Origin: a virus
DNA: 58,914 nucleotides
Virus record (IMG/VR): IMGVR_UViG_3300023283_000071
Location: 1-58,914 of that record
Direction: 5' to 3' (one strand)
Numbering within the stretch: position 1 is the stretch's first letter; each line of letters starts with the position of its first letter. The notes under the pieces were generated by a model. The model searched no databases. It was given only the letters and a program-made list of their open reading frames with translations, and was not told the DNA's origin. A program made the translations under genes and the position numbers. Positions 9,001 through 46,402 of the stretch are shown here, piece by piece.

Positions 9001-11729
9001 CCGCCGCCAAAGCCGACGTTGATGCAGCGGTGGCCGATAACCCGGACGTCCAGGAAGCAGTGCGCACGCGCTCCCGATTCCTGGCCGATCTGCGAGACAG
9101 GCTGGTTGAGGCTGGGGTGTTGTCTGAGGAACGGGCAAACAACCCGCACTACTTCCGGCACCAAGTTCTGCTCTACGCGAGATTGAATCAACGCGGCCAG
9201 AGCGCACGGAAGGTGAAGAAGCCGAGACCAGGCTACGCGATGAAGCGCGAGGGATCTCTACACGACATCAACGCACACTACATCGAAGCCGAATTTGACT
9301 TCATTCATCGCGCCCTGATCGACCTGAAAGCAGTATCAACGATCGCCAAAATTGACGACCGTTACAACATCCAGGGAGATCTCAAGAACAAGGCCCGCAT
9401 GGCGAACACCGCGGCGATGGAGGGCATCATCGCACAGGACATCGAGGAGAACGGGTGGGAGCTTGAAAACGGAAATCGCACCAGCCCGCTCGACCAACAG
9501 TGGAAGGGGTACAAGCAGCGCATTGCCAGGGGGACACAGAGTCTCGGGAAAATGCTGCTGGCCGATGGGGCCCCGGAGGTGCCGTCTCAGTATCAGGCTG
9601 CCGTCGAGGAGTTGATCGACTCGGCGCGGGAGCACCAGGAGCAAGCGGCCGAGGGAGTGCCTCTGGAGGAGCGAACTCAGATCGGCGCGATCAGCGACGA
9701 GGCTCAGGCGCAGTTGTTCCCGCTGTTGAGGTGGCTTCTACAGAACGACGCGACCGGCGCGGCTCCCGCGGGAATGATTCTGAAGGCCGTGAGCGAACGG
9801 CGGGAGTTTCTGAAGGAGAGTCTCGGGAAGAACTACAAGACGTGGAGAAGCCTAGTCCCTGACGGCTACGTCACGTGGCAGCCTGAGAAAGGCAATATCT
9901 TTTACACCGCCAAGACGTTCGGCGAAGACGTGATGAATCGCCTTCTAGGGATGGCCGAGGAATACGCACCTGCCAGTGTGGATAAAAGCGCCATACGGGA
10001 CGTAGTGGGGCGTATGAAGGACGCCGTCGTACTTGGTCAGAAAAAAAAGGAACTGGTCATCCCGGAGGAACTAGCAGCCACTCTCGAACACATGGCGCCA
10101 GATCCGCATGATGGACTGTTTGACCATCTATTCGGTGATCCGTTGAGGTGGTGGAGGCAGTGGGTGCTGATCAACCCGAGGCGGGTCCTCAAGTACAACC
10201 TCAACAACCTGTCCGGAGATCTGGATGCGGTGATCGCGGGGGCGCCCAGCGTTCTAAAGAAATTGCCGAGGGCGATCCGAGAATTGTACGATGTGATGCA
10301 CGATCGCGCAGAGCCCTCCGAGCTTTTTCGAGAGGCCGTGGACCGGGGAGTTTTCGACTCTGGGTTGACGATTCAGGAGATCCCGGACATCAACTATCTG
10401 TCGAAGTTTCGCAACCTGGTCAAAAAATCCACGCTCAGAGAGCCCGGTAGGTTCACTGTCAGTAACATCGCCAGAGTGTGGCATGGCCTTCGTGACTACA
10501 CCCGGTTCCGGGAAAACTGGATGCGCTACGCGGCCTTTCTACATTATGTGGAAAAGCTCGACAGCGGAGTCCCATTGGAAAACATTGGGTTCGGAGGCTC
10601 TAATCCCGACGCCGTAAAGGCGATCTATGAATCGGAAGGACCTCATGCCGTAGCGGGGCTACTCGCCCGCGAGCTCGTGGGGGATTACGGCGCGGTCAGT
10701 CACTACGGACAGGAGATTCGGCAGAAACTTATCCACTTCTACTCGTGGATGGAGATCAACACGAAGCGTTACACCAGGTTCTTCCGTAACGCATGGGAAC
10801 AGGGCTTCGGAAGTACCGCGAGGGTAACGGGAGTGCTAGCGGCTTCGGTCGCAAGAAAAGGGGCGCTCCTAACGGCAGGGCTCTACGTGAGGATGTTTCT
10901 GCTGTTCATGATCCTGAATGCGTGGAATCATCTGATGTTCGGCGACGAGGAAGAAGAACTAAATGACCACGATCGCGTTCGTCTCCACATCATTCTTGGG
11001 CGCAGCGATGACGGCACCATTCGCCTGATCCGCTTTCAGGGCGCGCTGTCCGACTTCCTCGACTGGTTCGGGTGGCAGGAGGCGGTGGCGGTCATGTCCG
11101 CCGTCGAGAAGGGGCGCGGCACCGCAACCGATCTACTCGAGACAGTTGCCCAGGCGCCAATCAATAAGATCTTCATGGGATTGACGCCCGTCATCAAGAC
11201 GCCCTTGGAGTTGATGTCCGGGCTAAGTTTTTTCCCGGACGTCTTCAACCCGAGGCCGATACGCGATCGCGGCCGGCACGTAGCTCGGCTGTTCTCCGCG
11301 GAACATGAATACGACGTGTTCACAGGCAGGCCGTCGAGAGGCTATGCGCAGTCCCTTGAGGAAACCGTCATTGTCCGCAGGGACGCTGGCGAGATCGCCT
11401 ACAACAAGATCAAAGGGCTCGAGTATGACTGGGCGGAAAAACAGCGCGGCACGTCCGGTTTTTCCACTATACAGACCGCACGGAGCCAGGCGACGTACCG
11501 CTGGAAGATCGCGACGAGGTACGGGGACAAGGATGCGGCGAAGCGCGCCATGGCAGATCTTAAGGCCATGGGCGTGACGAAAAAAGACATCAACAGAATC
11601 GTGAAGCGGGGTCGCCCTCTGGGAGTGATCGCCGCCAGGGACCGCGGGCGATTCCTCCAGAGCCTGACTGCGAGGGAGCGTGAAACGCTGGAAGCCGCAA
11701 AGCTTTGGTACAAGGACACGTTCCGCTAA
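18..11729 (+). CDS. Giant polyvalent multi-domain protein with a family-I pyrophosphatase-like module, N6-adenine DNA methyltransferase, SNF2/SF2 helicase, HExxH zincin-like module and a long C-terminal region with hydrophobic helices. This is the 3' part of an ORF that starts at 58349 across the circular junction.
   Basis: Uninterrupted 3903-codon ORF. Motifs read directly: YGYIRGTTGFDKDHLDVFL (nt 1995-2051; compare PPase YGFIPxT..DGDPxDV); EPSAGNGAL plus NPPF (3144-3155), which are amino-MTase motifs I and IV; GDQTGVGKGR Walker A (4728-4757); DETH (5142-5153); QVLGRINRTGQ helicase motif VI (6360-6392); HEVGVH (8265-8282). The frame is open from nt 1, so the Met at 18 is internal. Confidence 0.9.
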   Translation: MSPATRKALDEFAQDIARPAAMVQNQAGVEPPATAPPPEIEESAGYWASTKRGMATAAYGVSEALSLVGDVLGVEAIEERGEAGAQYWKKVLERPELQRPEFMRHGLVEGLKRRPLDYSINLLLENIPLLVTMMSGGGVAGVVAARALPAAVKAGIKAGNPAAISRARKTIGRAAMGGAAPTAGAIEGGFARGEALEAGATDEQALEVALRVGVINAALEVTPIGLLFRNPAGRRLITRIGQQIVAEAGTEAVQEFNNNLQHMLVHQPDKTLEDLFEGTPEAAYAGGLIGALMGAGGAWYNRGAPEEEGGAASVRGATGDGGYYTREIDAGDPDAPTELAGGTSATQEGPDTDRPTDLAGNPEAPPEPSGGPPQGPSGPTGGPPQGVAPGEPPPDFDLQPPGPQPVPGAVGAPQPPPPGPPAAPAAPTESVEPIPAPPTTPEQFQPTHTTPEGTEIMAGEGGYYTREIDAESGERRPVLKFHEGTTVTTREGRQVPIAEMEVTPAEERRRLEAAGQGKLPIPEPRETIDEAEGDAAASPENQRPEPTPAQKEAGNYPKGHVKLHGRDLSIETPRDSHRWQLATERLKMMAEQEHKDDNVSRFIRKALRLLEKNETVPEGFDVLRRMVGLSDKPGDWATEVRDELRGILDRGWIQKMSHTYGYIRGTTGFDKDHLDVFLHPDVESRPDAPVFVVNQQDEAGEFDEHKVMMGFTSEAEARKAYLENYPKGWEGLDSVVQLTPEQFDQWARSDAPKKGKLEGPPETAVPKPGKGEKPPPSPERPFTPTHELPDGTPVRHVEDDVYVDAQGQEWEEPNAAPIETEPDDDREDLAKEEPPEESPEDEGTPTEPDDDREDVASESERLAGEFQHFFAGADNSFKDIREARKWAGERLGRKVAPGTADAKLVDESMEAGLVRAAREIVRSGRKNNRTWDVIFDRLVNLYERQPRLGVRTSTSVSQQAYSTPMPIAWAVSVIADVGENTTVYEPSAGNGALLIGADPGNVHANELNEDRSETLEAQGFGKVTRFDAATENPGKQHDVVLANPPFGVVHNPDGSAKKFPIQTHKGEKRTTQIDHAIAMRSLASMKKGGTAVLILGSVRKTAASEQARSDAYHSAQKRDFFWALYHQYEVVDHFTIAGELYEKQGAGWPIDIVVVKGRKDAPEQTRTLPAKNLPDILRSFAELKERVRGHEAGLYRPESEGVGAGEQSGGPRGSTEAEGRPESQPGAVPGPVARPGGVAGAGTGGGRTGGGGRSSGTAAGPASKGEQPPGVRGGREGRPEPPDVVDRPRGARGEGELEGEAEPGGLEGAEGSKPGAVGGEPAGAGDLGRELESASEEDIDSLIDDALGEAAPEPAEARPEQKKESLKGAASESGKAISSALDAIWESTGGGSPATFKSGPFAFDEQGYQRIKGHLKASLEHTVAAGGHLKDFIQAVFADAARFPREWVENLLRPAVKRFVNEVNKGLILIKGLNDHKKRVQQQDKPTEHQVSYEPGSDGTPGGTLIPKNMRTAVKESLGDVKKRRGPLSEYVMARLGYTREQLDEYFLAEQIDALALAIDNMERGGAFIIGDQTGVGKGRVVAGALRYAMRQGKVPVFVTEKKNLYKDIYRDFVDIGMGDVTLLMTDASEKVFLTDDKSISLRTPDAQSHNANLIRIARGVQGLDQAFENVPADVIVTTYYQMQSEKGALTPRREFLNAIAPNAMFVFDETHNAGGTETVKRDADGAPIMDRARYVRHLAATAWQVFFSSATYAKRHDVMDLYARTDMRYAVSSIEGLGNAIKKGGVPLQQVVALMLAKAGQYLRRERSFDGIEYSTPLVEVNQTAYANFSRTIEAIHEFSKQVEVVTSHIDDELKGQGMHAGADQSTGGAGAESTKFTSIMHNLISQLLLSLKAQPSVDMALEAIANGQKPVITVSNTMGSFLDEYAEAMELNKGDLVALNFTDLLKRYLDKTRTITKREPFGEAERHYLTDEELGPQGVALYNRIADFMASQDEMKSLPVSPIDYIIDKIEQAGHTIGEITGREKRVRMERYEDQDGKTVERPVLDRRPDSISLRIETILRYNQGGENGLDALIINRAGSTGISLHASESVGDQRQRTMIIAQPEDNIDTHMQVLGRINRTGQVVKPRYLQLVADIPAEKRPAAVLSKKMASLNANTTAARSSSLTATDVPDFINEYGDEVVGQILDDDMELFYRLDVNAKLREGTIAREDLARKTTGRIPLLPIEDQEALYDRIESDYKELIAQLDATGANTLEAKYLPLDAEELNRKQLKEPLSNVDSPFAEGADAVRYRINVLGRPYPTSKVLRDLSERLGRGYSESESPEEAATALRQLGREGRRKILQDAKVEFESYKREVVDQIKDEGKARKEEAKLDQQWERFAATIKHIFPGNQVQLDAHSGRTLGTIMDVVPTGETKNPIAGGGWKVTIYLVSSARQITLPLSRLKLFGTVAGQSMQEKIQGIGATSFIVGTAPELQTPIILRYDEMQEQRREERWIVTGNLLAGFDAAGAKGQIITFETREGTVVSGIMMPKEWDVDAAIGGQPVRFSEASQVVAYVARVRKYPAFAADNIVRIMDDKGQGIRILVEPSRSTGGKYYMNEGVLEALGEDFVSSGSSMVARVSYDGAQNVVQALMDAGAEFEARTEKDIARQIAGLPPVQEARRSAPAAATGRSTTVRQAREAIADQVGEKALRHLEQLGVITLVQSRGELPEHLQKDAGAGVYDFENHRAYLVADEMGKEDAYGLFLHEVGVHYGLEGLLGEDLFDRVLRQLRGLEASGNNAARRAREQARKKRSDASEDEETLAYVVQDPANHKLSLVRRVVSGIRAFLFRIGVVKRLSIDDIVMLVRAAARRPRPQTERRARKGARAHSVRMPTDEQERRYQEAKKGLGDQRSLVQRVRDHITHTWHGISRHFIELPNTPFFAPAFEILREFEAAPEAAKEEAVRRLQRVVGKFNDKDLDLFTRKVLLDDLQWEIDNEHELPFALSPEDHAAAKADVDAAVADNPDVQEAVRTRSRFLADLRDRLVEAGVLSEERANNPHYFRHQVLLYARLNQRGQSARKVKKPRPGYAMKREGSLHDINAHYIEAEFDFIHRALIDLKAVSTIAKIDDRYNIQGDLKNKARMANTAAMEGIIAQDIEENGWELENGNRTSPLDQQWKGYKQRIARGTQSLGKMLLADGAPEVPSQYQAAVEELIDSAREHQEQAAEGVPLEERTQIGAISDEAQAQLFPLLRWLLQNDATGAAPAGMILKAVSERREFLKESLGKNYKTWRSLVPDGYVTWQPEKGNIFYTAKTFGEDVMNRLLGMAEEYAPASVDKSAIRDVVGRMKDAVVLGQKKKELVIPEELAATLEHMAPDPHDGLFDHLFGDPLRWWRQWVLINPRRVLKYNLNNLSGDLDAVIAGAPSVLKKLPRAIRELYDVMHDRAEPSELFREAVDRGVFDSGLTIQEIPDINYLSKFRNLVKKSTLREPGRFTVSNIARVWHGLRDYTRFRENWMRYAAFLHYVEKLDSGVPLENIGFGGSNPDAVKAIYESEGPHAVAGLLARELVGDYGAVSHYGQEIRQKLIHFYSWMEINTKRYTRFFRNAWEQGFGSTARVTGVLAASVARKGALLTAGLYVRMFLLFMILNAWNHLMFGDEEEELNDHDRVRLHIILGRSDDGTIRLIRFQGALSDFLDWFGWQEAVAVMSAVEKGRGTATDLLETVAQAPINKIFMGLTPVIKTPLELMSGLSFFPDVFNPRPIRDRGRHVARLFSAEHEYDVFTGRPSRGYAQSLEETVIVRRDAGEIAYNKIKGLEYDWAEKQRGTSGFSTIQTARSQATYRWKIATRYGDKDAAKRAMADLKAMGVTKKDINRIVKRGRPLGVIAARDRGRFLQSLTARERETLEAAKLWYKDTFR

Positions 11730-12369: not shown

Positions 12370-12774
12370 TCAGTAGATGGTCTTGATGGCCCAGCGAACA
12401 TCGCAGGGCCAGCAGATGCCTGCCTCTGGCCCGAGTTCTACGCCGTCTTCCCTGGCTTCGTTGCAGTCCTTGTACTTCTTCTTCCCTTTCCGGATCGGTC
12501 CCACCTCGCATGGAGTTGCCCGCAACGTAGCGACGATGCGGGCGAGTGCCGGCGGGTACTCGCCGAACGAGATCCACGAGGGGGTGAGGGACAGCGCCTT
12601 CGCCAGCTCCGGGATTATCCGCGGGCGCAGCGACTTCCCGTTCTCGATCTTCTGAATGACCGGCTGAGAGGTCCCGGCGCGAGCGGCCACGTCCTCCTGC
12701 GAGAGTGACAGCCTCAGTCGGGCGTCACGAACCCGATCGCCGATCGTCGCGCGGCTGCTTGAGTCGGTTTTCAT
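12370..12774 (-). CDS. XRE/Cro-CI family HTH regulator with a Cys-rich C-terminal extension
   Basis: [41 protein letters not shown] is a classic XRE HTH. The C-terminus has four Cys (CEVG..C..CWPC). The ATG at 12774 lies 47 nt inside the 3' end of the csrA-like gene. Confidence 0.8.
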
Positions 12775-12907
12775 CGCGGCTGATCTCCACGTGTCTAGGG
12801 GCCTCGATTCCGATACGTACGGTGTTCCTGTCGATCGAGAGGACCGTAACGACGACGTCGTCGCCGATGTAGATGGACTCCGGTGGCTTGCGAGATAGTA
12901 CGAGCAT
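12725..12907 (-). CDS. csrA: CsrA/RsmA-family RNA-binding translational regulator
   Basis: [46 protein letters not shown] aligns residue for residue with E. coli CsrA [46 protein letters not shown]. The ATG at 12907 shares one nt with the sbcC-like TGA (TGATG). The track start at 12910 is an upstream GTG. Confidence 0.9.
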
Positions 12908-15363
12908 CACAGCCTCCCGAAATTGATCTGGTGGTCAGCCATCTGCTGAACCTCGGGGGTGTGAGAAATGAAGAACTCGCCCTCGTACCCGCCGAGCCGG
13001 AGGACCTCGCGCTTCATCGCCACCAGCTCCAGCTTCTTCTCGTGGTCGAGCGCGCCGTCCATCTCGTCGGTAAAGATGGTTCGGTATCTATGCCCGGATG
13101 ACTGCGCCAGGTAAAGGGCGATGGCCTTCATCAGGGCCTCGTCCACGTAGACCTTCTGCCCTCCGGACATGGAGCGGACGGACTTCGAGGTCTCCCCCTC
13201 GGCGTCGTGGACGACGATGTCGAAGTCCTCCTTCATGTCGCCGGTCTTCTTCACCTCGCTCTGAGTCTTGAAGCTCACCGTGTACCGTGAGCCGAAGCAT
13301 GCGATCAGCAGATCGTTCGCCAGCGACGAGATCGCCGGCCCGGCGTCGTCGATGCACAGTGCGATGATCCCGTCCGTGGAGAGAGCGGTCGAGAGCTCGT
13401 GCCAGTACGGCAGTTCCCTCTCCAGCGTCTTCACCTCCTCGCGAACGCAGGCGAGCCGTTCCAGGTGCTCCTCGCAGGACCGTATGCTTGCGCGGGCGGA
13501 CTCCTCGGCTGTCTTCGCAGCCGAGAGATCGGAATCCGACGCAGCCGCTTCGCTCTCTGCCGAGCGTACGTGTTCGCGCGCGCCTTCCAGGGCGGCAGCG
13601 TCGTACGCCGGGATCGCTTCGATCTGCGCGTGGATCTTCGCGGCCTGCTCCTCGCCTTTCTTCTGGAGATCATGCAGTTTCTTCGCGTGCCGATCCTGTG
13701 CTTCAAACTCCGCGGTTGCGGCGCTTTTGATGGCGGCATCCTGCCGTTCCTGTTCTTCTGCGGCGGCGGCCGCGTCAGTCTCGAGGTGGCCTCGCTCCTC
13801 CTTGGCGCCCTTCAGTGCCGATTCATCGGCCGCGAGTTCTCGTTGAGTGGTGAGCTTCGCGTAAGCGTCCTTCCTGGTCTCGTCCATATCGGAGAGGGCA
13901 CTCTCCGTCGTGTCCGCCTCGTCGAGCCCCTTCTCCTCCCTGTACGTTCTGGCACGCTCCTTGAGGTCCTCGTACTGCTGCAGCATCTCGTCCTTCTCGG
14001 CCGAGATTTGAACGGCTCGCTTCGACGCATCCCTCGCATTCCCGAGTAGCTGGCAGGTCTGGTTCATCTCGGTGCCGACGCACGGCACCTCCTCGATCAG
14101 GCGGCTGCGCTCCGAGGCGTCCTCGAGCTTCTCGGCCAGGTGCTTCCCCTTGGCCTTGATCTCCTGCCCGTCTGCCTGCATACGCTGCAGCTCGCGCTCG
14201 GCCTGGTAGCGGACGTCGCGCGCCACACGCGCTTCGTCCATCTGGGCTGAGATCTTCTCGATCTCTGCCTCGAGTCGCTTCACCTCCTCGGCGGCGCGCC
14301 GGATCTGGCTCTCGCGGGCGAGAAGCCGGTCCTTCTCCTCGATCCGACGTCGGATCTCCTGTGTCCGGGCGGCGGCCCGATCTCGCGCCCGAAGCGCCTC
14401 CTGGTGGGCGTGGGAAAGCCGCTGCTGCTCGTCACGGGACTCGGCGCGGTACTTGGCTACCTCCTGCTCCGTCGCCTCCTGTGCGGCCTGTAGCTCGCTC
14501 TCGAGGGCACGCCGGCGCTCGATGTCAGCCTCGGCCGCCTTTGCCCGCTCCTCCTCCCTCACGAGGTCCTCGCGGGCGCGCGTGAGGGCTTCCTCCCATT
14601 TCTTGTGCGCCGCAACAAGCCGCTCCACCTCGGCCGCCTTCTCGGCCTGATCCGAGCGCGCCTGCTTCAGGCGTGCCTCGGTGCTCTCGACGTCCTCCCG
14701 CGTGCTCCTGTGGGCCTCCAGGCGCGCCCTGAGCCCCCTCCTGACCTCCCGGGCCCGGTCGCCCAGGGCCTCCACCTCGGCGAGCCCCAGGAGCTCGCTG
14801 AGGAGCCCCTTGATGTCGCTCTGTCGGTAGGTGGAGAGGTGGCCCCGCCCTTGTGCCGAGAAGACCGACGAGAAGAACAGCTCCGGCGATCCGAAGATCG
14901 AGCTTACACAGGCGTCGTGGGTGTCCGTCTTCCCGTCCGAGGTCGTCCCATCCGGGAGGGTGACGGGCTCCCACTCGGCATTGCTGAGATCGAGCGAGGC
15001 ATCCACACGACGAGAGGCGCGGTGTATCTGGAGGTATGCCTCCTGCTTCCTGGACTTTCCCCCGCCGTGGATCAGCACGATGGAGCGATACGCCTCACCT
15101 TCGTGCTCGCACGCAAACTCCTTGCGGGCTTTCAGATGGGTCTGGTCGTAGAAGCTGAATGCTCGCGGCGAGTAGGACGAAGCTCGCGATGGCATGAGCC
15201 GGTACGGGTGCATGTTGTCGAGCACCGTCGTCTTCCCACGGCCGTTCGGCCCGACCAGGGCCACGAGCCCCTCGTAGCCAGCGAGATCGATCTCGAACGA
15301 GTCGCGCCCGAGGCCGTCCCGGATACCGATGAAGTTGTCGAGCTTGAGATAGAGGGGCTTCAT
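12907..15363 (-). CDS. sbcC: SbcC/Rad50-family ATPase (SMC-like, long coiled coil)
   Basis: N-terminal Walker [12 protein letters not shown], a central E/A/R/K-rich coiled coil of about 450 aa, signature SMSGGQKV and Walker [11 protein letters not shown] at the C-terminus. There is a 4-nt overlap with the sbcD-like gene. Confidence 0.85.
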
Positions 15364-16613
15364 TCCAGGTGCTCCAGGGCCACGAGCTTCTCCACCGGAG
15401 TCTCCGACTGGAGCAGCGCAAGCCGCTGCATCAGCTCGGCTTCATGGTGGCGCGAGTCCGTGACCTCGATCCATCGATCGAGTCGTTCGTGCATCCCCGT
15501 GGCCTGGGTGATCCCTGCCGCCCGCTGCCGCTGGATGGGCAGCACCCGGGGCTCGCACTTCAGTTCTGCCGCGGCCTCGAACAACTCCTCTATCGCGGCC
15601 CGGTCCACCGAATGGGCGTGCTCCTCGTCCACCGACCACCGCAACCGCACGTGGGCATCCTTGGCCTCGGCGGCGATGCGCTTCACGATCTCCATGTCGG
15701 GTGGTCCCTCAAACGTGTGCTCGACCAGCCGCTTCGCCGGCGTCTCACAGAGCGCGAGCGTCGCCACCTGTCCATCGTGGCTGAATTCCCACCGCAGCCA
15801 GCCTTTCGGATCCACTTCGCCAAAGTGGAGTCGGCCGATGGAGCCCGGGTAGGCCCCTACCATCCCGTCGCGGCTCCAGGACTGGTGCTTGTGGATGTGG
15901 CCGAGCATCACGGCCGCGGCCTCGGAGGCGAACAGAGTGGCCTCGGTGAACTCGTGGTCGAGTCCGTGCATCGGGACTCCCTGCTCGGTCACGGAGCCGA
16001 CCACGGTGCCGTGAGAGAGCAGTACGGTCGGTGGAATCGACGGGCGGCCGCTCCGCATGATCTCGTTTGCCGGCGCGAAGGCGCGGAGCATCTGGTGCAC
16101 CGCGTCCCCGGCGGCCTCGGCCGCCTCGTCGGCCCCCACGGTTGCCGCGAGCGCCCCTTTGTGAATGGCCGGCAGACAGGAGAACAGCGCCAGGATGGCG
16201 CCGTCGAGATCGTCCAGCTCATGCTTGGTGAAAGTGGTGGCGTGGCTGGCGATCCACTCGAGGCCGTCGTTAGCGTCCTCGATCAGCACCACCTGGGAGA
16301 TCCGATCTGCGACCCACACCGGGTAGAGTGGCGTGAGGGTCCTGAATACGTCCAGGCTCCCCGGGACGTCGTGGCTGAAGGTGCCCTGGAGGATGATCAC
16401 CGGCATGTAGCTGGCGAGATCGTAGACCTCGGCAAGAAGGGCCGAGACCGCGGGCGAGTGCACGTCGAGGCGACGGTCGAACAGATCGCCCGTGATCACG
16501 CCGATCCCGCACTGCTCGTTGCAGGCGCGGGAAACCGCGTGATGGAAGCACCGACGCACCTCGGCGAGGTACGGATCGCAGAAGTGGAGGTCTGAGAAGT
16601 GGGCGATCTTCAT
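15360..16613 (-). CDS. sbcD: SbcD/Mre11-family metallophosphoesterase nuclease
   Basis: MKIAHFSDLHF, GDLFDR, and later GHIH/HG motifs typical of calcineurin-like nucleases. It sits directly upstream of the sbcC-like gene. Start taken at the ATG at 16613 rather than the TTG at 16622. Confidence 0.85.
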   Translation of the reverse strand: MKIAHFSDLHFCDPYLAEVRRCFHHAVSRACNEQCGIGVITGDLFDRRLDVHSPAVSALLAEVYDLASYMPVIILQGTFSHDVPGSLDVFRTLTPLYPVWVADRISQVVLIEDANDGLEWIASHATTFTKHELDDLDGAILALFSCLPAIHKGALAATVGADEAAEAAGDAVHQMLRAFAPANEIMRSGRPSIPPTVLLSHGTVVGSVTEQGVPMHGLDHEFTEATLFASEAAAVMLGHIHKHQSWSRDGMVGAYPGSIGRLHFGEVDPKGWLRWEFSHDGQVATLALCETPAKRLVEHTFEGPPDMEIVKRIAAEAKDAHVRLRWSVDEEHAHSVDRAAIEELFEAAAELKCEPRVLPIQRQRAAGITQATGMHERLDRWIEVTDSRHHEAELMQRLALLQSETPVEKLVALEHLE

Positions 16614-16626
16614 GGTTCGCAATTCT

Positions 16627-16911
16627 TCACTTCTTCGTCTTGCCCGTCTTCGCCGGCGGGATCGAATCGTCGTCCGGGATCACCTCGGTCTCCTCATGCT
16701 TGTCGAGCTTCCACTGCTCCCACCCGAGCACGTGCCGAACGATCTGAGGGATCAACCGCTTGCCGTCTGCCTCGCGCTCGCTCGCGTACACTCGAGCGAA
16801 GCTTTCCGCGTCCGGCGTGATCCGGATGATGTGCTCGTGGCGCTCGGCCTCCTCCAGCGTGGCGAACGTCTCGCCGTCTGCGGCCACGAACTGCTCTATG
16901 GATTTGACCAT
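16627..16911 (-). CDS. Hypothetical protein
   Basis: 94-codon ORF packed tightly between neighbouring genes. No motif recognised. Confidence 0.55.
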   Translation of the reverse strand: MVKSIEQFVAADGETFATLEEAERHEHIIRITPDAESFARVYASEREADGKRLIPQIVRHVLGWEQWKLDKHEETEVIPDDDSIPPAKTGKTKK

Positions 16912-16923
16912 GATCTCCTCCGG

Positions 16924-18060
16924 TCAGAATGGTATATCGTCATCGAAGTTTTCTATGGAGTCTGGGTGGATGTCGTTCGCTTCTGCGTCCTCCGACGGAG
17001 TCGGGTCGTCCGCGGCGACATCGTCTATCGGCTCGTCCTCGCGCCGGTGCTCGAGCGCGGGCGCGGGCGCGGAAGCCTCCAGTCTCCTTCTCTCCTCGGC
17101 CGCGGCGAGCGCCGCCATGTCGAGCGGGACGTGGAGGTGGATCAGCCACTGCGGGGTCTGAACTGCCTCGCCCGTGGAGAGATCGATCCGCGACACCGTG
17201 TCCCACACCTTGTGCACCCAGAAGATGGGCTCCGCGCGGCCGTCAGGGAGTCGCGCCATTCCGGCAATCCGGCCGCGCACCCCCTCGATCTCCTCCATCT
17301 GTCCCATCCACTGATTCATGCTGTAGTAGCTCGTCGTGCGCAGCTCGCACGCCGCCCCGAGCGGGACTCCGGGGATGTAGAACAGCAGGCGGCCGGCGAG
17401 CCTGCACTTCGTTTCCTGGTACTCCGGACAGATGTCCGGCAGGCACTTCCCTTTCGGGTCGAGGTCGGTGCGGATCTCGATGGGTCGCCCCTGCGACGGA
17501 CGGCGCGCGCGGCGCGCCTTGCCTTCGCCGACCATCTCCACGGAGCCCCACTGTTTGCAGTAGCGCACTCCGTGCTCGTCGTACTCCGACCAGTAGGTGA
17601 GCTTGGTCCCCTTCATGCAGCGGTATTCGTGCGGCATGTTGCTGAGCCATTCGTCGGACGAAAGCACGACGGGGAACCGATAGAGCATCGGCTCGTCCGG
17701 GTACGGCTCGTCGTTGTCGGGGCGGACTCCCTTCCTCACCTCACCGTAGAGCTTCAGGAGGAGGTCCACGTGCTCGCGCGACGGAAAGTCGCTCTCGATC
17801 ACGTGGAACCATGGAGTGTTGATCGGATAGAACGGACGACTCCGGAAGTCAAACGTCGTCCGCTCGTCCTTGATGATCGCCCGCTCGATTCTGTCGATCG
17901 GGACTCCGTTCTTCTGCCCCTGCTCGAAGATGTACTTCGCCCGCTTGTCCTCGAGGAGCTTTTTGCTCGGCACCTTCGTGCCCGGGCGGATGCGCCCGGC
18001 GATCGGTGCCTGGCGCGGGCGGCGCTCGGCACTCTCCCCCAGGATCGAGTGTTTCGTCAT
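16924..18060 (-). CDS. Putative ssDNA-binding or recombination-mediator protein ending in a bacterial SSB-type C-terminal tip
   Basis: 378 aa. An acidic tail ends ...NFDDDIPF (E. coli SSB ends DFDDDIPF). The N-terminal part does not resemble an SSB OB-fold by eye. It is the first gene of the operon that carries sbcCD. Confidence 0.5.
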   Translation of the reverse strand: MTKHSILGESAERRPRQAPIAGRIRPGTKVPSKKLLEDKRAKYIFEQGQKNGVPIDRIERAIIKDERTTFDFRSRPFYPINTPWFHVIESDFPSREHVDLLLKLYGEVRKGVRPDNDEPYPDEPMLYRFPVVLSSDEWLSNMPHEYRCMKGTKLTYWSEYDEHGVRYCKQWGSVEMVGEGKARRARRPSQGRPIEIRTDLDPKGKCLPDICPEYQETKCRLAGRLLFYIPGVPLGAACELRTTSYYSMNQWMGQMEEIEGVRGRIAGMARLPDGRAEPIFWVHKVWDTVSRIDLSTGEAVQTPQWLIHLHVPLDMAALAAAEERRRLEASAPAPALEHRREDEPIDDVAADDPTPSEDAEANDIHPDSIENFDDDIPF

Positions 18061-18086: not shown

Positions 18087-18115
18087 ACGATACTCCTTGC
18101 CGAAGGCAGAGTCAA
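18087..18115 (-). promoter_or_regulatory. Sigma70-like promoter for the leftward SSB-tail/sbcDC/csrA operon
   Basis: Minus strand reads TTGACT (18115-18110), a 17-nt spacer, then TATCGT (18092-18087), about 27 nt upstream of the ATG at 18060. A divergent TTGCCG-N18-TAAGTA (18097-18126) overlaps it on the plus strand. Confidence 0.4.
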
Positions 18116-18721: not shown

Positions 18722-20287
18722 GTGCCCGAGCAGCTCGAAGCGTTCCGCCAGCCGATCGGTGAGATCGAGCCCCGGGTGTACCAGGTCCAGGCATTCCAAA
18801 ATCTCAGGCGAGCCTTCTCATCCGGGAAACGCAGGGTGCTCCTCCAGGCCGGGACCGGGGCAGGGAAGACGATCATCGCGTGCATGGTGATGGACTCCCT
18901 GGTGAAGAAAGGGAATCCCGGGATTTTCCTCGCTCATCGGCGCGAGCTGATCCACCAGTGCTCGAGGAAGCTCTACGATTTCGGCATCCCTCACGGCGTG
19001 ATGATGGCCGGAGAGATGCCGCTCGAGTCTCGTCAGATGCAGGTCGCCAGCATCCAGACCCTGTGGCATAGGGGGGTGATCCGAGACCGTATCGAACTCC
19101 CCCCTGCGTCCTTGCTGGTGATCGACGAAGCTCACCGGTCCATGGCGAAGACCTATCTCCACCTCATCGACGCATACTCGGAAGCCCTGGTCCTGGGGCT
19201 CAGCGCGACGCCGTGCCGTAAGGATGGGCGCGGTCTGGGCGAAGTTTACGAGCAGATGGTCTCCTGCCCATCACTCACGGAACTGATCAACGAAGGCTAT
19301 TTGGTGCCGACCAGGTTCTTCGCGCCATCGATCCCTGATCTCAAGGGGGTGAAGGTACGTGCCGGCGACTACGTCGAGGAGCAGTTGGCCGAGAAGATGG
19401 ACCGCCCCGAGCTCGTGGGCGACGTGATAGAGCAGTGGGCTCTCCATGGGGGGAATCGCAAGACGGTCGTTTTCGCGAGCAGCGTAGAGCACAGCATTCA
19501 CCTCGCGCGTGCATTCTGCTCATCGGGTGTGGCCGCGGATCACCTTGACGGGAATACCCCAATCCAGGAACGCGACCAGATGCTCAGGAAACTGAGCGAT
19601 GGCGATCTGCAGGTAGTGTGCAACTGTCAGGTGCTCACGGAGGGATGGGATCAGCCGGATGTCGGCTGCGTCGTTCTCGCGCGCCCGACACGCAGCATCG
19701 TTCTCTATCTACAGATGGTCGGTCGCGGTATGCGCCCGTGGCCCGGCAAGCGTGATCTGATCGTGATCGATCACTCCGGCGCGTTGTACGAGCACGGGTT
19801 CCCGGAGGAGAAGATCAGATGGAGCCTGGATCCATCGGAGAAGGTGGTGAACGAGGTCCAGGAGCAGAGAGCAGCCAAGGAGGCAAGGCCGATCTGTTGC
19901 CCGGAGTGCTCTGCCGTCTACGTCGGGCGCGCACAGTGCCCCGAATGTGGGCACACGCCGAAGCGACGCCCATCGAAGGTGGCTTACGTCGATGCGCAGC
20001 TCGGGGAGGTACCACGGAAGGGAGAAACGCAATCGGAGGCGACGATCAGAGAGAAAGAACGCTGGTATGCCATGCTGCTAGGCCATGCGCGCAACCGAGG
20101 CTACAAGCCCGGGTGGGCGTACTACGCCTACAAGGAGAGGTTCGGTAAGAACCCCCCGACATCGATAGATCGGTCTCGGTCTGTCGATCCCTCCCCGGAC
20201 GTGCGAGCGTTCATTACACACCTCAACATCAAGCGAGCGAAGGCGCGTGAGCGAGAGGAAAAACATAGTCAGCAGAATATGGGATGA
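18722..20287 (+). CDS. SF2 DEAD/DEAH-box DNA helicase with a C-terminal zinc ribbon
   Basis: Walker A LLQAGTGAGKT, motif II VIDEAH, a SAT-like GLSATP, helicase-C motifs (QMVGRGMR) and CCPECSAVYVGRAQCPECGH. Confidence 0.85.
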   Translation: MPEQLEAFRQPIGEIEPRVYQVQAFQNLRRAFSSGKRRVLLQAGTGAGKTIIACMVMDSLVKKGNPGIFLAHRRELIHQCSRKLYDFGIPHGVMMAGEMPLESRQMQVASIQTLWHRGVIRDRIELPPASLLVIDEAHRSMAKTYLHLIDAYSEALVLGLSATPCRKDGRGLGEVYEQMVSCPSLTELINEGYLVPTRFFAPSIPDLKGVKVRAGDYVEEQLAEKMDRPELVGDVIEQWALHGGNRKTVVFASSVEHSIHLARAFCSSGVAADHLDGNTPIQERDQMLRKLSDGDLQVVCNCQVLTEGWDQPDVGCVVLARPTRSIVLYLQMVGRGMRPWPGKRDLIVIDHSGALYEHGFPEEKIRWSLDPSEKVVNEVQEQRAAKEARPICCPECSAVYVGRAQCPECGHTPKRRPSKVAYVDAQLGEVPRKGETQSEATIREKERWYAMLLGHARNRGYKPGWAYYAYKERFGKNPPTSIDRSRSVDPSPDVRAFITHLNIKRAKAREREEKHSQQNMG

Positions 20288-20885
20288 AGCGACCGACAGC
20301 CTCACCGAGGCGGTCGGATTCTTCCAGTCCCGCAGGATCAAGCCGAAGGGGGCAGATCTACGGTATCACTATGGCGTGAAGTGGAAGGGGCACGAATATC
20401 CTGCGTTGCTCTGCCGCATCTACGATCCCAGAGGTCGGGTGTTCGCGCTGAACGCCATGCTGCTGGATAGTGATGAGGCGGAAAGGAGGATCGTGATCAC
20501 TGACCCCGATGGAGGTGGGTGGAGAGTAGGGTCCGCCGTCCATGTTTATCCCTATCCGGAGGAGGATCATTTGCAGCTAGGAGTGACGGTCGGGGTGGCC
20601 AACGCGATCGCGGTAAGCAACATGCTGCCATGGAATCTTCCTGTGTGGGCAGTTCTCGGTCCGGGGTCGTTGTCGAACTTCCGACCTCCAAGTGAGTGTT
20701 CTGGGCTGTTCGTGTTCGGCCTCCCAACAAAGGATTTCACGGGGCATCGGTCGGCCTACTATCTCGCTGCGCGCTCGTTCAAGGAGGGACTCAGCGTGTC
20801 GGTGGAGTTTCCCTCGGAGAGGGACGTCGAGGTGGACTGGCTGTCGGAGTCGTGGGTCGAAAGTCACCGGAGGAGGGTGCAGTGA
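20247..20885 (+). CDS. Toprim-like protein of plasmid/phage primase-associated type with a degenerate catalytic centre
   Basis: GSAVHV..LQLGVTVGVANAIAVSNMLPWNLPVWAVLGPGSL..LFVFGL..G aligns with the usual GGAV..L.VAEGIETALS...PVWAALSAGNL...I.AD.D..G pattern. The Toprim Glu and the DxD acidic residues are replaced. Confidence 0.4.
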   Translation: MSERKNIVSRIWDEATDSLTEAVGFFQSRRIKPKGADLRYHYGVKWKGHEYPALLCRIYDPRGRVFALNAMLLDSDEAERRIVITDPDGGGWRVGSAVHVYPYPEEDHLQLGVTVGVANAIAVSNMLPWNLPVWAVLGPGSLSNFRPPSECSGLFVFGLPTKDFTGHRSAYYLAARSFKEGLSVSVEFPSERDVEVDWLSESWVESHRRRVQ

Positions 20886-21889
20886 GCAAGGCCATAGCCG
20901 AGGTGGTGCACGAAGGCGTCGTGTACGAGGAGACCCGGCTCGAACTATCCGAGAGACTCACCTTCGAGCAGTGGGCGGCCGCCGGGGAGACCCTGAAGCT
21001 CATGGGGCGCGCCGTGAAGTGGTGGATCGGCGACTGGCTGGTCTACGGTGAGGACCGTTTTCCTCAGAGTTACACCCAGGCGCTCGACGAGGGCATGGAG
21101 GAGGTTGCCAGGATGTACGCGGAGAGCAGCCTGCAGAGCCTGAGGTGGGTGTCGTCGTGCGTGCCGAAGTCGCGCCGTCGCGCGACGCTGTCTTGGTCTC
21201 ATCACGAGTCTGTGGCTGCGCTCGCACCGCAGGAACAGGAGCGGTACCTCAAGGAGGCGGTACGAGAGGATCTAGGTGTACACGAGCTTCGCCGGAGGGT
21301 TCGAGATGCCAGGAAGGAGGCGAAGCGAAAGGAGCTTCGGGCGGGATTCGAGGAGAATGCAGATCCCGCCTTGGGCCCTGCCGACATCATCCTCGCCGAC
21401 CCGCCGTGGGAGTTCTTGGACACCGGGCTGAACCAGTCCGCCGGCAAGCACTACGCGACCATCCCGACTGACGAGCTCGTCGGACTCCTCGAGCGTATCG
21501 ATCTCGAAGCGAAGGCGAGTGCGGCACTGTTCCTGTGGGTGCCGAACGCCCTGCTTCCGGACGGGCTGAGGGTGTGCTCAGGATGGGGGTTCGAGTACAA
21601 GACGAACATCGCATGGCGCAAGACCGCGATGCGTCGCCCTGGAACGGGGTGGTACGTTCGCAACGAGCACGAGCTTCTGTTCCTCGCCACGCGGGGGTCA
21701 TTTCTTCCGACATCGAACGAGATCCATTCATCCGTGATCGAGGCTCCGCTCGGCGCGCACAGCCGGAAACCGTCTGAGACCTACGCCGTGATCGAGGGCA
21801 TGTACGATGGGGAGCTCACGAAGGTCGAATTGTTCGTGCGCGGGAAACCGCGTGATGGCTGGCAAGGATGGGGGAACGAAAAGGGATGA
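20882..21889 (+). CDS. MT-A70-family N6-adenine DNA methyltransferase with an N-terminal helical (DNA-binding-like) domain
   Basis: DPPW motif at 21398-21409 (IILADPPWEF), followed by the LFLWV and EHELLFLATRG blocks typical of MT-A70. Start taken at the GTG at 20882, which overlaps the upstream stop as GTGA. Confidence 0.8.
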   Translation: MSKAIAEVVHEGVVYEETRLELSERLTFEQWAAAGETLKLMGRAVKWWIGDWLVYGEDRFPQSYTQALDEGMEEVARMYAESSLQSLRWVSSCVPKSRRRATLSWSHHESVAALAPQEQERYLKEAVREDLGVHELRRRVRDARKEAKRKELRAGFEENADPALGPADIILADPPWEFLDTGLNQSAGKHYATIPTDELVGLLERIDLEAKASAALFLWVPNALLPDGLRVCSGWGFEYKTNIAWRKTAMRRPGTGWYVRNEHELLFLATRGSFLPTSNEIHSSVIEAPLGAHSRKPSETYAVIEGMYDGELTKVELFVRGKPRDGWQGWGNEKG

Positions 21890-23008: not shown

Positions 23009-23317
23009 CTATCGACCACGGTGCATCTGGAGGCGGTGGAGCTCTCGTCGTTCGATGTTGCGCACCTCCCGCGAGGGTCCTCCGATGGGCACGCACACGG
23101 TGATGCAGGCCCAGTTCAGCGGACAGCCTCGGAGCCGTTTCGTCGCCATCTCCAACGATGCCAGGGCTCGCGAGATCGCCTGCCTGTGGTGCCCCGTCTC
23201 CCGTGCCGCATCCGCGACGGTGTACCCCTCGACCAGCACGAGGCGCGTCCCCTCGATGGTCTTGTGGGAGCGGAGGTAGCTCCGCTGCAAAGCCTGCTGG
23301 AATTGGAAGGGGGTCAT
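23009..23317 (-). CDS. KorA/TrfB-family HTH repressor (IncP-plasmid type)
   Basis: FQFQQALQRSYLRSHKTIEGTRLVLVEGYTVADAARETGHHRQAISRALASL aligns with RK2 KorA SQFQEAIQGLEVGQQTIEIARGVLVDGKPQATFATSLGLTRGAVSQAVHRV. It is the last gene of the leftward small-gene operon. Confidence 0.65.
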   Translation of the reverse strand: MTPFQFQQALQRSYLRSHKTIEGTRLVLVEGYTVADAARETGHHRQAISRALASLEMATKRLRGCPLNWACITVCVPIGGPSREVRNIERRELHRLQMHRGR

Positions 23318-25639: not shown

Positions 25640-26140
25640 TCACAGCAGGCCACGTTCGGCGAACGAGGTGCTGACCCCGGCGCCGATCACGAAGTGATCG
25701 AGCACGCGCACCTCGACGAGGCCGAGCGCGTCCTGGAGCCGCCGGGTGAGGGCCCGATCCGCCTGGCTCGGCTCGGCGACGCCGGAGGGGTGGTTGTGGG
25801 CCAGGATCACCGCCGCCGCGTTGTGGCGGAGCGCGCGCTTCACCACCTCCCGCGGGTGCACCGAGGCGCCGTCGATGGTGCCGCGGAACAGCTCCTCGAA
25901 GCGGATGACCCGGTGCCGGTTGTCGAGGAACAGGCAGGCGAACACCTCGTGCTCGAGCGCCTCCAGGCGGAGGCGCAGGTAGTCTCGGGTCTCGCTCGGG
26001 CTCGAGAGTTGCGGGCGGTCTCGGAGCGCCGCGGCCCGTGACTCGAGGATGTGCAAAGCCTGCGCGATTGCCTCAGCCTCGGCCGGGGTCAGGTTCGTGC
26101 CGGGGGTGTACTCGGCTGCATCTTCTGATCTCGCCTGCAT
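25640..26140 (-). CDS. radC: RadC-like JAB/MPN domain protein
   Basis: [43 protein letters not shown] is the canonical RadC JAMM block. ATG at 26140. Confidence 0.85.
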
Positions 26141-26160
26141 GTCGTGTCTCCTCTCTCTCT

Positions 26161-26214
26161 CGTTGGTGGTCACGCGGCAGCGCCCCCCAGCGGGGGACGC
26201 TGCGACCTGATCAC
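26161..26214 (-). promoter_or_regulatory. Intergenic hairpin-leader cassette, copy C
   Basis: cgttggtggtcacgcg GCAGCGCCCCCC agc GGGGGACGCTGC gacctgatcac. The stem is 12 bp with one mismatch (26177-26188 / 26192-26203). Confidence 0.75.
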
Positions 26215-26936
26215 TAGTCCCCGCAGCCACCGCGCACGCGCCGGCTGCCGGTCTGATACGCTCGCCAGGTGTAGCCGCAGGGCAGGTACACCTCCTCGTG
26301 CTCGGGGTGCTCGACTACGATCCCGCCGAGCCGCCGGTGCGGGCGCATCGAGTGTCGCTCGGTGCCGGTCCCGGCGAGATCGTCGGTCAGCGTGGCGATC
26401 TGGGACTCGGCCGCCGCCGGGCGCTCGCACTCGCGCCCGACCAGCCAGACGTCGCCCTGGCGCAGGATCATGGCGTCGAGGCGCCCGCGCGCGCCCCGCA
26501 CCTCGCGCGGGGTGATCTCCTCCAGCGCCTGGGGCACCGTGCGGGCTGCCGCGCTCACGCGCTCGACCCACGGCTGCCCGTCGTCGGTGCCGCAGATGTA
26601 TGAGATGGTCGCCGGCCACGAGCCGACCTGCGGCGAATAGTACCTGTGCCCTTCGGCGCGGAGCAGGCAGCACCCGCCTGGTCCGCGGCCGGCCACCTGG
26701 AGGCGCTGCTCGCCGTGGCGCTCCTGGATGGCGGCGGGGAATCCCGCCGCCTCGATCACCGGCTCCCAGCGCGCGACAATGCGCGCGTCGAGCCGCTCGC
26801 GGAGGCTGGGCGGGCTGCGGAGGGTCGCTCGGCGGTTGCGCTCGCGCCTCACGCGGCGGGCGCGGCGGATCGGCTGCCCGTACTTACGGGCGAGCCGCGC
26901 AGAGTCGTCCGGCCAACGATAGATTGCGTTCGTCAT
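26214..26936 (-). CDS. Hypothetical protein
   Basis: ATG at 26936 ([11 protein letters not shown]...), preceded by cassette-type leader D. No family recognised. Confidence 0.6.
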
Positions 26937-39662: not shown

Positions 39663-40049
39663 ATGGCGGTCGAGCCTCCATCTGACGGGGACCTGCTCGA
39701 CGCCATGGCGTCCCTGCTGTCCAGGTTCTCCGACGCCGACAAGGGACACGACATAGCTCCGGAGGAAATGAAGGTGCGCAAGGACGGGATCCTGATCGCG
39801 CGCAGCCGGAGTGACCCTTGCATGGTGATGTTCCACTTCGTCACCCCGGACGACTACGAGGTCAGGATCGAGTTCGACACGGAAGCCGCAAGGGGCGAGG
39901 GGCGCCCCTACATCGACCGGGTCATGTCGTCACTGCTTGACCGTCTCGAGAAAAACCGTTCACGCCGCAGTCCGCTCATCCTGCCGTCGAGATCCCCGAT
40001 GAGCGTCAAGACCACCCTCACGAAGGCCGATCGGAAGCTCCTGCATTGA
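39663..40049 (+). CDS. Hypothetical protein
   Basis: 128-codon ORF between terL and the portal gene. Confidence 0.55.
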   Translation: MAVEPPSDGDLLDAMASLLSRFSDADKGHDIAPEEMKVRKDGILIARSRSDPCMVMFHFVTPDDYEVRIEFDTEAARGEGRPYIDRVMSSLLDRLEKNRSRRSPLILPSRSPMSVKTTLTKADRKLLH

Positions 40050-45721: not shown

Positions 45722-46402
45722 ATGGCGAATGTTGCATGGTCCTCCTACCTTCCGGACCTGCTGGTAGAGGTACCGGGGGTCCCGACTCCGATCGCGGAGA
45801 GCAAGATCCGTGATGCTCTGATCGAGTTCTGCTATCAGTCGAGCATCTGGAGGCAGGATTTGTCTCCGATCGACGTCACGGAAGACGTAGACACCTACAC
45901 CCTCACCAATCCGACCGGCGCCCAGATCGTCACTCCACACCACGTGGAGTTCGACGACACGCCGGTTCTTCCGATTCCAGAGGATCTCCTCGACCACGTC
46001 TCCCGCAACTGGCGGAACAGCGAGCTCGGGTACCATTTCTTCATGGAGGATCCGAACACGTTGCGGCTGACGTGGCTGCCGAGGAAGACCATCACCGGGG
46101 GGCTCGACGTAGGCGTGGTGCTCAAGCCGAGCCGCTCCTCTGCCGACGCTCCGGACTGGCTGTTCGAGAACTGGAAGGAGCCCATCGTTCACGGCGCTGC
46201 CGCCAGGTGTCTCGAGATGCCGAACAAGCGGTGGAGCGCGGTAGGGACGCCGAGCGACGGCCGGCGAACGAGGGGGATCCGTAGAGCCAACTCGTCGTTG
46301 CATTGGGATCGGTTCTGGGGCGGGGTGAGCAAGGCCCTCGGAGTCGCCACGAAAAGCCATACGCGGACCGGCACCCGCGTCGAGTTCACTCCCTTCGCGT
46401 GA
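45722..46402 (+). CDS. Hypothetical virion-module protein (head-tail joining candidate)
   Basis: 226-codon ORF; position only. Confidence 0.55.
   Translation: MANVAWSSYLPDLLVEVPGVPTPIAESKIRDALIEFCYQSSIWRQDLSPIDVTEDVDTYTLTNPTGAQIVTPHHVEFDDTPVLPIPEDLLDHVSRNWRNSELGYHFFMEDPNTLRLTWLPRKTITGGLDVGVVLKPSRSSADAPDWLFENWKEPIVHGAAARCLEMPNKRWSAVGTPSDGRRTRGIRRANSSLHWDRFWGGVSKALGVATKSHTRTGTRVEFTPFA

Follow-up and report, generated by a model that had tools for sequence, protein, structure and literature searches.

A Gp3-like phage protein with the C-terminal tip of bacterial SSB, encoded at the head of an SbcCD-type operon

[quoted passage not shown] The answer that is favored here, with fair confidence and by analogy to known systems, is that the protein would be the phage's own ssDNA-binding protein. 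It would combine a Gp3-like core with an N-terminal peptide and an acidic tail of the SSB C-terminal (SSB-Ct) type, and act together with the Mre11/Rad50-type nuclease. The gene and the relevant parts of its product are located as follows.

16924 to 18060, minus strand: gene of the Gp3-like (PF18897) protein, 378 aa, a proposed phage ssDNA-binding protein (open reading frame (ORF) call, Pfam, AlphaFold2 (AF2), Foldseek)
17071 to 18003, minus strand: folded Gp3-like core, residues 20-330, mixed beta/alpha and basic, with an isoelectric point (pI) of 8.8 (AF2, alignment, fold matches)
17404 to 17559, minus strand: invariant cysteines C168, C206, C211 and C219 (alignment of 53 homologs)
18004 to 18060, minus strand: N-terminal peptide of low model confidence with the motif HSILG, residues 1-19 (predicted local distance difference test (pLDDT), family motif)
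16927 to 17070, minus strand: acidic C-terminal tail, predicted to be disordered, residues 331-378 (charge, pI, pLDDT)
16927 to 16944, minus strand: DDDIPF, identical to the bacterial SSB-Ct tip (sequence identity)

The ORF has an ATG start and a TGA stop, the stop codon being 16924-16926, and the encoded C-terminus reads ...HPDSIENFDDDIPF*. A first-pass annotation, made from the DNA letters, had described a 378-aa ORF ending in DDDIPF with an acidic, disordered-looking tail and a cluster of cysteines. All of these features were confirmed; the strand, which had been left unstated, is the minus strand.

Residues 22-268 match the Pfam family PF18897 (Gp3-like) with E 2.1e-18 and 67.3 bits, the cut-off being 23.6; gp3 of phage phiC31 scores 64.4 bits with the same model. 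The window protein belongs to this family, which Pfam names 'Gp3-like recombination directionality factor-like', and its body is not a canonical bacterial SSB domain. PF00436, the OB (oligonucleotide/oligosaccharide-binding) domain of bacterial SSB, has no match in the protein, and no family for it was found in PHROGs, NCBIfam or PADLOC. In view of the Pfam score and of the fold match described next, the suggestion that the protein is novel and unclassified had to be dropped.

An AF2 model of the window protein, built on 53 homologs, has a mean pLDDT of 86, with block means of 87-97 over most of residues 20-330. In a Foldseek search of this model against the PDB, the sole significant match was 9teh_I (E 7e-6, probability 1.0), with a template modelling (TM) score of 0.54 when normalised to the target. 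Chain I of 9teh is the recombination directionality factor (RDF) gp3 of phiC31, bound to integrase in the excisive synapse. For the homolog P0003, an independent AF2 model (pLDDT ~86) again gave 9teh_I as the top match (E 1e-5, probability 1.0). The sub-threshold lists of both models consist mostly of OB-fold ssDNA binders, i.e. bacterial SSBs, trypanosome editosome OB proteins and the N-terminal domains of MCM, which is suggestive, not proof; T4 gp32 is missing from the Foldseek lists of the family models. A search of the PDB sequences with the family profile returned noise only, and hhalign gave no similarity between the family and phiC31 gp3, so that the link to phiC31 gp3 rests on the Pfam hidden Markov model and the fold.

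In the predicted structures the core is shown to have a Gp3-like fold, and it probably is an OB-type ssDNA-binding domain of the Gp3/gp32 kind, not a new fold and not a bacterial-SSB or gp2.5 domain. The relevant precedent is the RDF of actinophage TG1 (gp25). This protein is reported to have a T4-gp32-like OB fold with a predicted zinc site; it binds ssDNA and not dsDNA in the electrophoretic mobility shift assay, is encoded among replication genes, and its RDF activity is viewed as a secondary, 'moonlighting' job (PMC11795197, 2025). The 'non-OB-looking' N-terminal body of the first-pass annotation, which had been an impression only, is thus probably wrong. That annotation had also proposed structure prediction with a fold search, an ordinary SSB or gp2.5-type OB fold being what would make the protein known biology. 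In spirit this is what the models suggest, namely an OB-type ssDNA-binding protein of the gp32/Gp3 kind; taken literally it does not hold, as the fold is neither of the bacterial-SSB nor of the gp2.5 type.

The alignment of the 53 homologs (A1) contains 27 invariant columns, many of them aromatic. The cysteine cluster CLPDICPEYQETKC comprises C206, C211 and C219, and these three residues as well as C168 are invariant in 53 of 53 aligned homologs. Judged from this conservation, the four cysteines probably form a structural zinc site. The most conserved pattern of the family is CxPxxCPEYQ, which was used to find 310 genomic relatives. Ahead of the core, residues 1-13 of the window protein have a pLDDT below 50. 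A motif (S/T)(V/I/L)LG is fixed 13 residues ahead of the core motif GKIRxG in 85 of 143 family members, and is represented in the window protein by HSILG, with a 4-residue insertion in the spacing to GKIRxG. This N-terminal peptide is a candidate for another short linear motif, one that may act in self-association, cooperativity or partner binding; gp32 and the TG1 RDF have comparable interaction peptides at their N-termini.

The gp3 proteins of phiC31 and phiBT1 and gp25 of TG1 are classified in the same Pfam family as the window protein, phiC31 gp3 and the window protein both scoring above threshold. Fold, Cys-based putative zinc site and replication/repair neighbors are further points of likeness with phiC31 gp3 and TG1 gp25, and by analogy the same ssDNA binding would be expected. 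There are, however, clear differences. The window protein has extra helical insertions and 378 aa, compared to ~244 aa in the actinophage gp3-type proteins, and phiC31 gp3 ends in ...NDAIAD, without an acidic tip of the SSB type. The actinophage proteins act with a large serine integrase, of which none was detected in the window. Finally, SbcCD-like genes go with the family in its proteobacterial branch, whereas no SbcCD annotation was seen beside phiC31 gp3 at a glance at its annotation.

The tail is distinct from the core. Residues 331-378 contain 17 Asp/Glu and 2 Lys/Arg and have a pI of 4.05, compared to 8.8 for the first 330 residues. The mean pLDDT of the AF2 model drops from 68 to 44 past about residue 335, i.e. 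the tail is predicted to be disordered. Its end is identical to the SSB-Ct hexapeptide, which is given as DDDIPF (PMC5872125). Over the whole window, translated in six frames, DDDIPF is present a single time. The chance of finding it exactly at a given C-terminus, computed from the amino-acid composition of the window's own proteins, is ~2e-8, or ~1e-6 over 65 ORFs. With bacterial SSB (PF00436), and with canonical phage or plasmid SSBs that carry the SSB-Ct tip, the window protein shares a disordered acidic tail with the identical tip, which serves SSB as docking site for many SSB-interacting proteins. The putative DNA-binding body, in contrast, is unrelated in sequence, and the tail lacks the Gly/Gln-rich linker (0 Gly in 48 residues). 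A tblastn search of the window with E. coli SSB gave an alignment limited to the last 8 residues of the Gp3-like protein, and neither this search nor Pfam on the scanned ORFs (which include all ORFs longer than 250 aa) revealed a canonical SSB domain in the window. Despite its tip, the window protein lies outside the bacterial SSB family.

When homologs of the 48-residue tail were sought by themselves, no candidate donor came up. Codon bias was also considered as a sign that the tip was acquired recently. The last 12 codons (16927-16962, minus strand) have a G+C content at third positions (GC3) of 50%, compared to 86% for the whole gene (binomial P ~0.003), and include ATA twice, as well as GAT and CCA. 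An equally low terminal GC3 is found in 4 of 31 window genes; the bias is at most a weak hint and was not relied on.

Is the tip a peculiarity of this one protein? Relatives were drawn from metagenomes, bacterial genomes, IMG/VR and plasmids. A big protein database contained 65 relatives with 31-39% identity, all 65 with PF18897, and a family profile run exhaustively against 1.84 billion cluster representatives yielded 982 family members at E <= 1e-3 (321 at <= 1e-30). A tblastn search of 50,697 deposited phage genomes with the Gp3-like protein gave no match. Most family members are 410-500 aa long and consist of the core, a disordered linker and a module of ~70-90 residues with a WGxGW motif. 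In P0003 (residues 355-424) this module is confidently predicted by AlphaFold as a four-helix bundle (pLDDT > 95). No informative structural match was found for the bundle of the homologs P0002-P0065, of which P0003 was modelled. The window protein is without this bundle and carries its acidic tail in the same position.

Among the 194 family members of at least 300 aa, 37 (~19%) end in -PF, where 0.47 (0.2%) would be expected from composition, an excess of ~80-fold. These tips are often preceded by acidic residues (NDDVPF, DDDCPF, DEQIPF, DPDVPF); the exact DDDIPF occurs in the window protein only. Most of the window protein's nearest relatives have a -PF tip: it is present in 5 of the 9 copies on IMG/VR viral contigs, and in the 4 bacterial-genome copies that are closest to the window protein (L003-L006, from gammaproteobacterial metagenome-assembled genomes). 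Placed on a neighbour-joining tree built from the cores, the 22 PF tips need at least 17 state changes, although this tree is rough and truncated sequences may inflate the number of losses. The scatter of the tips over the tree indicates that the tip has been gained and lost repeatedly, as selection on a short linear motif would lead one to expect. An acidic tail is also found on the short forms P0125, P0129, P0203 and L089, the last ending in DMDDDDGRAF. Both the recurrent SSB-Ct-like motif in the Gp3-like family and the short chimeric form with the exact DDDIPF seem to be new. The natural C-terminal variants (four-helix bundle; bundle plus -PF; acidic tail plus DDDIPF) amount to a ready experiment on how SSBs of mobile elements plug into the replication and repair hubs of the host.

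The genes that accompany the Gp3-like gene provide the second line of evidence. They are arranged as follows, in the order of transcription.

18087 to 18115, minus strand: sigma-70-like promoter candidate, TTGACT-17-TATCGT (consensus match only)
16627 to 16911, minus strand: 94-aa ORF at the junction of the Gp3-like gene and SbcD (no family)
15360 to 16622, minus strand: SbcD/Mre11-like nuclease subunit, 420 aa (Metallophos E 5e-7; phrog_100 SbcD-like)
12907 to 15363, minus strand: SbcC/Rad50-like ATPase subunit, 818 aa (phrog_77 SbcC-like, E 4e-29)
12725 to 12910, minus strand: homolog of CsrA (carbon storage regulator), 61 aa, directly 3' of the SbcC-like gene

The Gp3-like gene is the first gene of a tightly packed, same-strand operon of the SbcCD type. 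The first-pass annotation had already placed it at the head of an SbcCD operon; this remains true of its first position, and is to be corrected in that the 94-aa ORF separates it from SbcD. The GGAGGAG ribosome-binding site of this small ORF sits right behind the stop codon of the Gp3-like gene. Scans of Pfam, PHROGs, NCBIfam and PADLOC gave no match for the 94-aa product, and it is not conserved (0 matches in tblastn against the related loci). The SbcD-like and SbcC-like genes overlap by 4 nt. As for the promoter candidate, 1 sigma-70-like site was found compared to 0.8 expected, which makes its placement suggestive and statistically not significant.

Of the downstream pair, the first protein has a calcineurin-like phosphoesterase domain (SbcD), and the second is an ATPase of the Rad50/SMC type that contains a long coiled coil (SbcC). 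The SbcD-like protein matches TIGR00619 (sbcd) with E 9e-9, under the cut-off of that model, and its matches to SbcD/Mre11 structures in the PDB are weak. The SbcC-like protein matches Rad50 models with E 2e-10 and the PDB Rad50 5f3w with E 4e-6. Because the TIGR00619 and Rad50 scores lie below the equivalog cut-offs, both proteins are regarded as distant members of their families. The CsrA homolog (TIGR00202, E 2e-19, 69.3 bits compared to a cut-off of 70.1) is a phage-encoded post-transcriptional regulator, and a tblastn match to it also lies 3' of SbcC in the locus L090.

The same arrangement is found well beyond the window. A scan with one genome per species revealed 310 Gp3-like loci in bacterial genomes, and the best 80 of these 310, plus L001 and L002, formed the locus set, of which the 53 with at least 5 kb downstream were counted. 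Most of the retrieved loci are from Burkholderiales and Rhodocyclales; some are from Gammaproteobacteria, Xanthomonas among them. An SbcD homolog follows immediately 3' on the same strand in 52 of the 53 bacterial loci, an SbcC homolog is present in 48 of the 53, and both occur in all nine IMG/VR viral loci. The Gp3-like family was also found on 77 plasmids, 42 of which were typed as conjugative. One example is the conjugative megaplasmid pMOL28 of Cupriavidus metallidurans CH34 (L095, 68478-74345), where a cassette of Gp3-like gene, SbcD-like gene, small ORF and SbcC-like gene lies near a DUF932 gene and is annotated as 'hypothetical protein / DNA repair exonuclease / hypothetical / AAA family ATPase'. 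Its Gp3-like protein is of the long, tip-less form. In L001 the cassette is flanked by a CI-type repressor and a tyrosine integrase; lambdoid phages keep their recombination genes exo/bet between repressor and integrase.

The conserved Gp3-like/SbcD/SbcC cassette in phages, prophages and plasmids seems to be new. No open-access paper that mentions PF18897 was found, and in 2017 homologs of gp3 were listed in only three verified phages, all of them actinophages (PMC5814800). The family is now extended from these three to ~980 cluster representatives, at least 310 bacterial loci and 77 plasmids. Its current annotation is 'hypothetical' or, misleadingly, 'recombination directionality factor'. As a wider reading, which is put forward tentatively, the cassette might be a module for recombination and establishment that is widespread, and so far undescribed, among phages, prophages and conjugative plasmids of Proteobacteria. 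The gp32-type zinc OB protein would be the dedicated coating and annealing partner of the Mre11/Rad50 nuclease, and the -PF motif would be gained and lost repeatedly as a means of access to the SSB interactome of the host. On this reading phiC31 gp3 and TG1 gp25, the actinophage RDFs, would be an offshoot derived from the family and not its prototype. If this is true, the cassette would represent a further phage recombination system beside those of the Rad52, Rad51 and Gp2.5 types.

How could the favored ssDNA-binding protein work in the window phage? In T4, the nuclease gp46/47 resects DNA ends and gp32 then sequesters the ssDNA; gp32 itself has a basic N-terminus, a Zn-OB core and an acidic, partner-binding C-terminus (PMC3016280). 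The window protein resembles gp32 in its N-terminal peptide, its putative zinc OB-type core and its acidic, putatively partner-recruiting C-terminus, and in the proposed partnership with a Mre11/Rad50-type nuclease that would make the ssDNA to be coated. The acidic 48-residue C-terminus, predicted to be disordered, is of the gp32 type, although its contacts are inferred. In contrast to these likenesses, there is no detectable sequence similarity between gp32 and the window protein. The tail of gp32 serves to recruit proteins of T4 itself and is not known to end in DDDIPF, and T4 gene 32 is not known to be adjacent to genes 46/47, whereas the window genes form one operon.

The Gp3-like gene would be co-transcribed with the Mre11/Rad50-type nuclease and, following the T4 analogy, the SbcCD-like enzyme would expose ssDNA at ends or hairpins, as gp46/47 does. 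The zinc-stabilised OB-type core would coat this ssDNA, as suggested by the TG1 homolog and T4. The N-terminal peptide may mediate self-association or partner contacts, similarly to gp32 and the TG1 RDF. The coated phage ssDNA would still present DDDIPF to the SSB-interacting proteins of the host, given the docking role of SSB-Ct. These proteins include the chi subunit of Pol III, PriA, DnaG, RecO, RecQ, RecJ and ExoI. The Gp3-like protein would cover and protect the ssDNA and, perhaps annealing it as well, hand it on for recombination-dependent replication or repair. The neighboring genes on the opposite strand encode an HTH_36 initiator-like protein, a helicase, a DUF7146/Toprim primase-like protein, an MT-A70 methylase and a VRR-NUC nuclease. 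No DNA polymerase and no known family of single-strand annealing proteins (SSAPs) or recombinases was detected in the scanned ORFs. With an initiator, a helicase and a primase-like protein encoded and no polymerase detected, the phage presumably borrows host enzymes. Of the two readings offered by the first-pass annotation, the better supported is that of an ssDNA-binding protein with access to the host SSB interactome; it is the best-supported reading overall.

Several observations weigh against this account. About 80% of the family members have no -PF and yet keep the SbcCD linkage, which makes the tip dispensable for the family's core function. The last seven residues (FDDDIPF) equal the terminus of E. 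coli SSB; the SSB tip of the phage's own host may differ. Several window ORFs without a family could hide a polymerase, an SSB or a recombinase. Moreover, proteins of the phage and not of the host may be the partners of the tip, or it may act in autoinhibition.

A possible, though rather unlikely, alternative overlaps with the ssDNA-binding reading and replaces coating by annealing as the main activity. The protein would then be an SSAP, the synaptase of the SbcCD-like nuclease in a phage recombination module of two components, with its SSB-type tail recruiting host factors. This fits the near-absolute linkage to the nuclease, the position of the L001 cassette between CI-like repressor and integrase (as for lambdoid exo/bet), and the fact that known SSAP/recombinase families went undetected in the scanned ORFs of the window. 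There is also a precedent in the Gp2.5-like proteins of OB fold that are found clustered with recE-like genes and function as recombinases (PMC2896510). T7 gp2.5 and these Gp2.5-like recombinases share with the window protein the acidic tail with aromatic end and the clustering with a nuclease gene; they are OB-type SSBs with a role in recombination, as is proposed for the window protein. They differ in that there is no sequence or fold match, that their partner is RecE-like and not SbcCD-like, and that a zinc site is not described for them in PMC2896510. Nor does the window protein match Rad52, Redβ, Erf or Sak4 in sequence or fold. No member of the Gp3 family has a known annealing activity, the TG1 RDF having been assayed for binding alone. 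If the protein does also anneal DNA, the cassette could serve recombineering in high-GC Beta- and Gammaproteobacteria.

The second alternative concerns the tail. It may act inside the phage system, either by autoinhibition on the protein's own basic cleft, as in T7 gp2.5, T4 gp32 and E. coli SSB, or by docking on the phage SbcD/SbcC, helicase or primase-like protein, the identity to SSB-Ct being convergence. The gp32 A-domain likewise binds phage partners, and many relatives have looser tips (-VPF, -TPF, -APF, -EPF, -GRAF) that are not of the exact host type. A DnaQ-like 3'-5' exonuclease (PF10108, DNA_pol_B_exo2) is found at the junction of the Gp3-like gene and SbcD in 3 of 11 loci with a PF tip, compared to 0 of 75 tip-less loci. 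Mutually similar Cys-rich ORFs of ~205-219 aa occur at the same junction in other loci.

L001, 9265 to 9975: DnaQ-like insert
L006, 1314 to 2120: DnaQ-like insert
L085, 11282 to 12055: DnaQ-like insert
L005, 11532 to 12191: Cys-rich ORF
L092, 11176 to 11793: Cys-rich ORF
L089, 8138 to 8782: Cys-rich ORF

The DnaQ-like exonuclease is a possible partner of the tip, in a sample that is small and phylogenetically clustered. Any inserted gene at all is seen in 5 of 11 PF-tip loci and 1 of 75 tip-less loci. By eye, the Cys-rich inserts, which make up half of the inserts, look like homing endonucleases of the HNH/AP2 type, i.e. selfish insertions. The correlation between tip and insert is therefore confounded by these insertions as well as by shared ancestry. 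The junction in the window has neither a DnaQ-like gene nor a homing-endonuclease-like insert. Furthermore, seven terminal residues of the E. coli type go beyond what a generic acidic end with a Phe would need. A purely phage-internal role of the tail is possible, though rather unlikely.

It was also suggested in the first-pass annotation that the protein is a decoy. Its tail would titrate host SSB partners and cripple host repair and replication, or a RecBCD- or ExoI-type attack on the phage DNA, the body being of little matter. Such a role would suit a tip that is exactly of the host type, carried on a tail that is flexible and acidic, and a gene in the first position of the operon. However, conservation of the ~310-residue core is strong throughout hundreds of relatives, 27 positions that include aromatics and the four Cys are invariant in the alignment of 53 homologs, and a homolog binds ssDNA. 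Moreover, the tip is absent from most relatives, and a decoy would not need the lock to the SbcCD operon. The decoy is improbable compared to the ssDNA-binding reading.

The family name implies yet another function, that of an RDF that binds a large serine integrase and switches it to excision. The membership in PF18897 and the fold match to the integrase-bound phiC31 gp3 in 9teh speak for it. Against it, no serine or tyrosine integrase could be detected in the 58.9-kb contig, neither by Pfam on the scanned ORFs nor by tblastn with serine and tyrosine integrases, the phiC31 integrase giving noise only (E >= 0.5). Nor do ~90 related loci have an integrase of the phiC31 type within 10 kb, and the integrase of L001 is of the tyrosine type. 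As the RDF activity is moreover published as 'moonlighting' (PMC11795197), it is very improbable as the function of this protein, and an RDF function was rejected for want of a cognate integrase partner in the window. The name most likely reflects a secondary job in a few actinophages and not the function here. The -PF tips of the family, with the exact SSB-Ct hexapeptide in the window protein, provide independent, purely genomic support for the view of gp3-type directionality factors as phage SSBs that were later co-opted.

Defence systems repeatedly pair SMC-like ATPases with nucleases. That the cassette, with its Rad50/SMC-like ATPase, its nuclease and a sensor, is an anti-phage or anti-plasmid defence system of this recurrent kind is the least likely explanation, in spite of its occurrence in prophages and on conjugative plasmids, since it is located in replication/recombination modules and its SSB-type tail and SSB-type homolog point to the element's own DNA metabolism; membership in a known defence system was rejected on the PADLOC result (no match for the Gp3-like, 94-aa and SbcD-like proteins, and only Walker-A/P-loop-level noise for the SbcC-like protein).

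The remainder of the window is that of a phage, as concluded from an SU10-type portal (40046-42172), an adaptor (46303-47064) and a capsid protein on its far side. The element may be non-integrating or phage-plasmid-like. Two plasmid- or ICE-flavored genes (ICE, integrative and conjugative element) were noted on the minus strand, encoding a KorA/TrfB-type repressor (23009-23317) and a RadC-like JAB protein (25640-26230). On the plus strand, a 3903-aa ORF (18-11729) contains an inorganic pyrophosphatase domain (InPase), a weak N6-methylase match and the Strawberry-notch-type helicase domains AAA_34 and Helicase_C_4; it presumably resembles the giant anti-restriction proteins of the DarB type or of plasmids. 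The primase-like ORF (20247-20885, DUF7146 and Toprim_3) and the longest MT-A70 ORF (20696-21889), both on the plus strand, overlap by ~190 nt. As the MT-A70 domain begins only at residue 230, the true start of the methylase is probably located further downstream.

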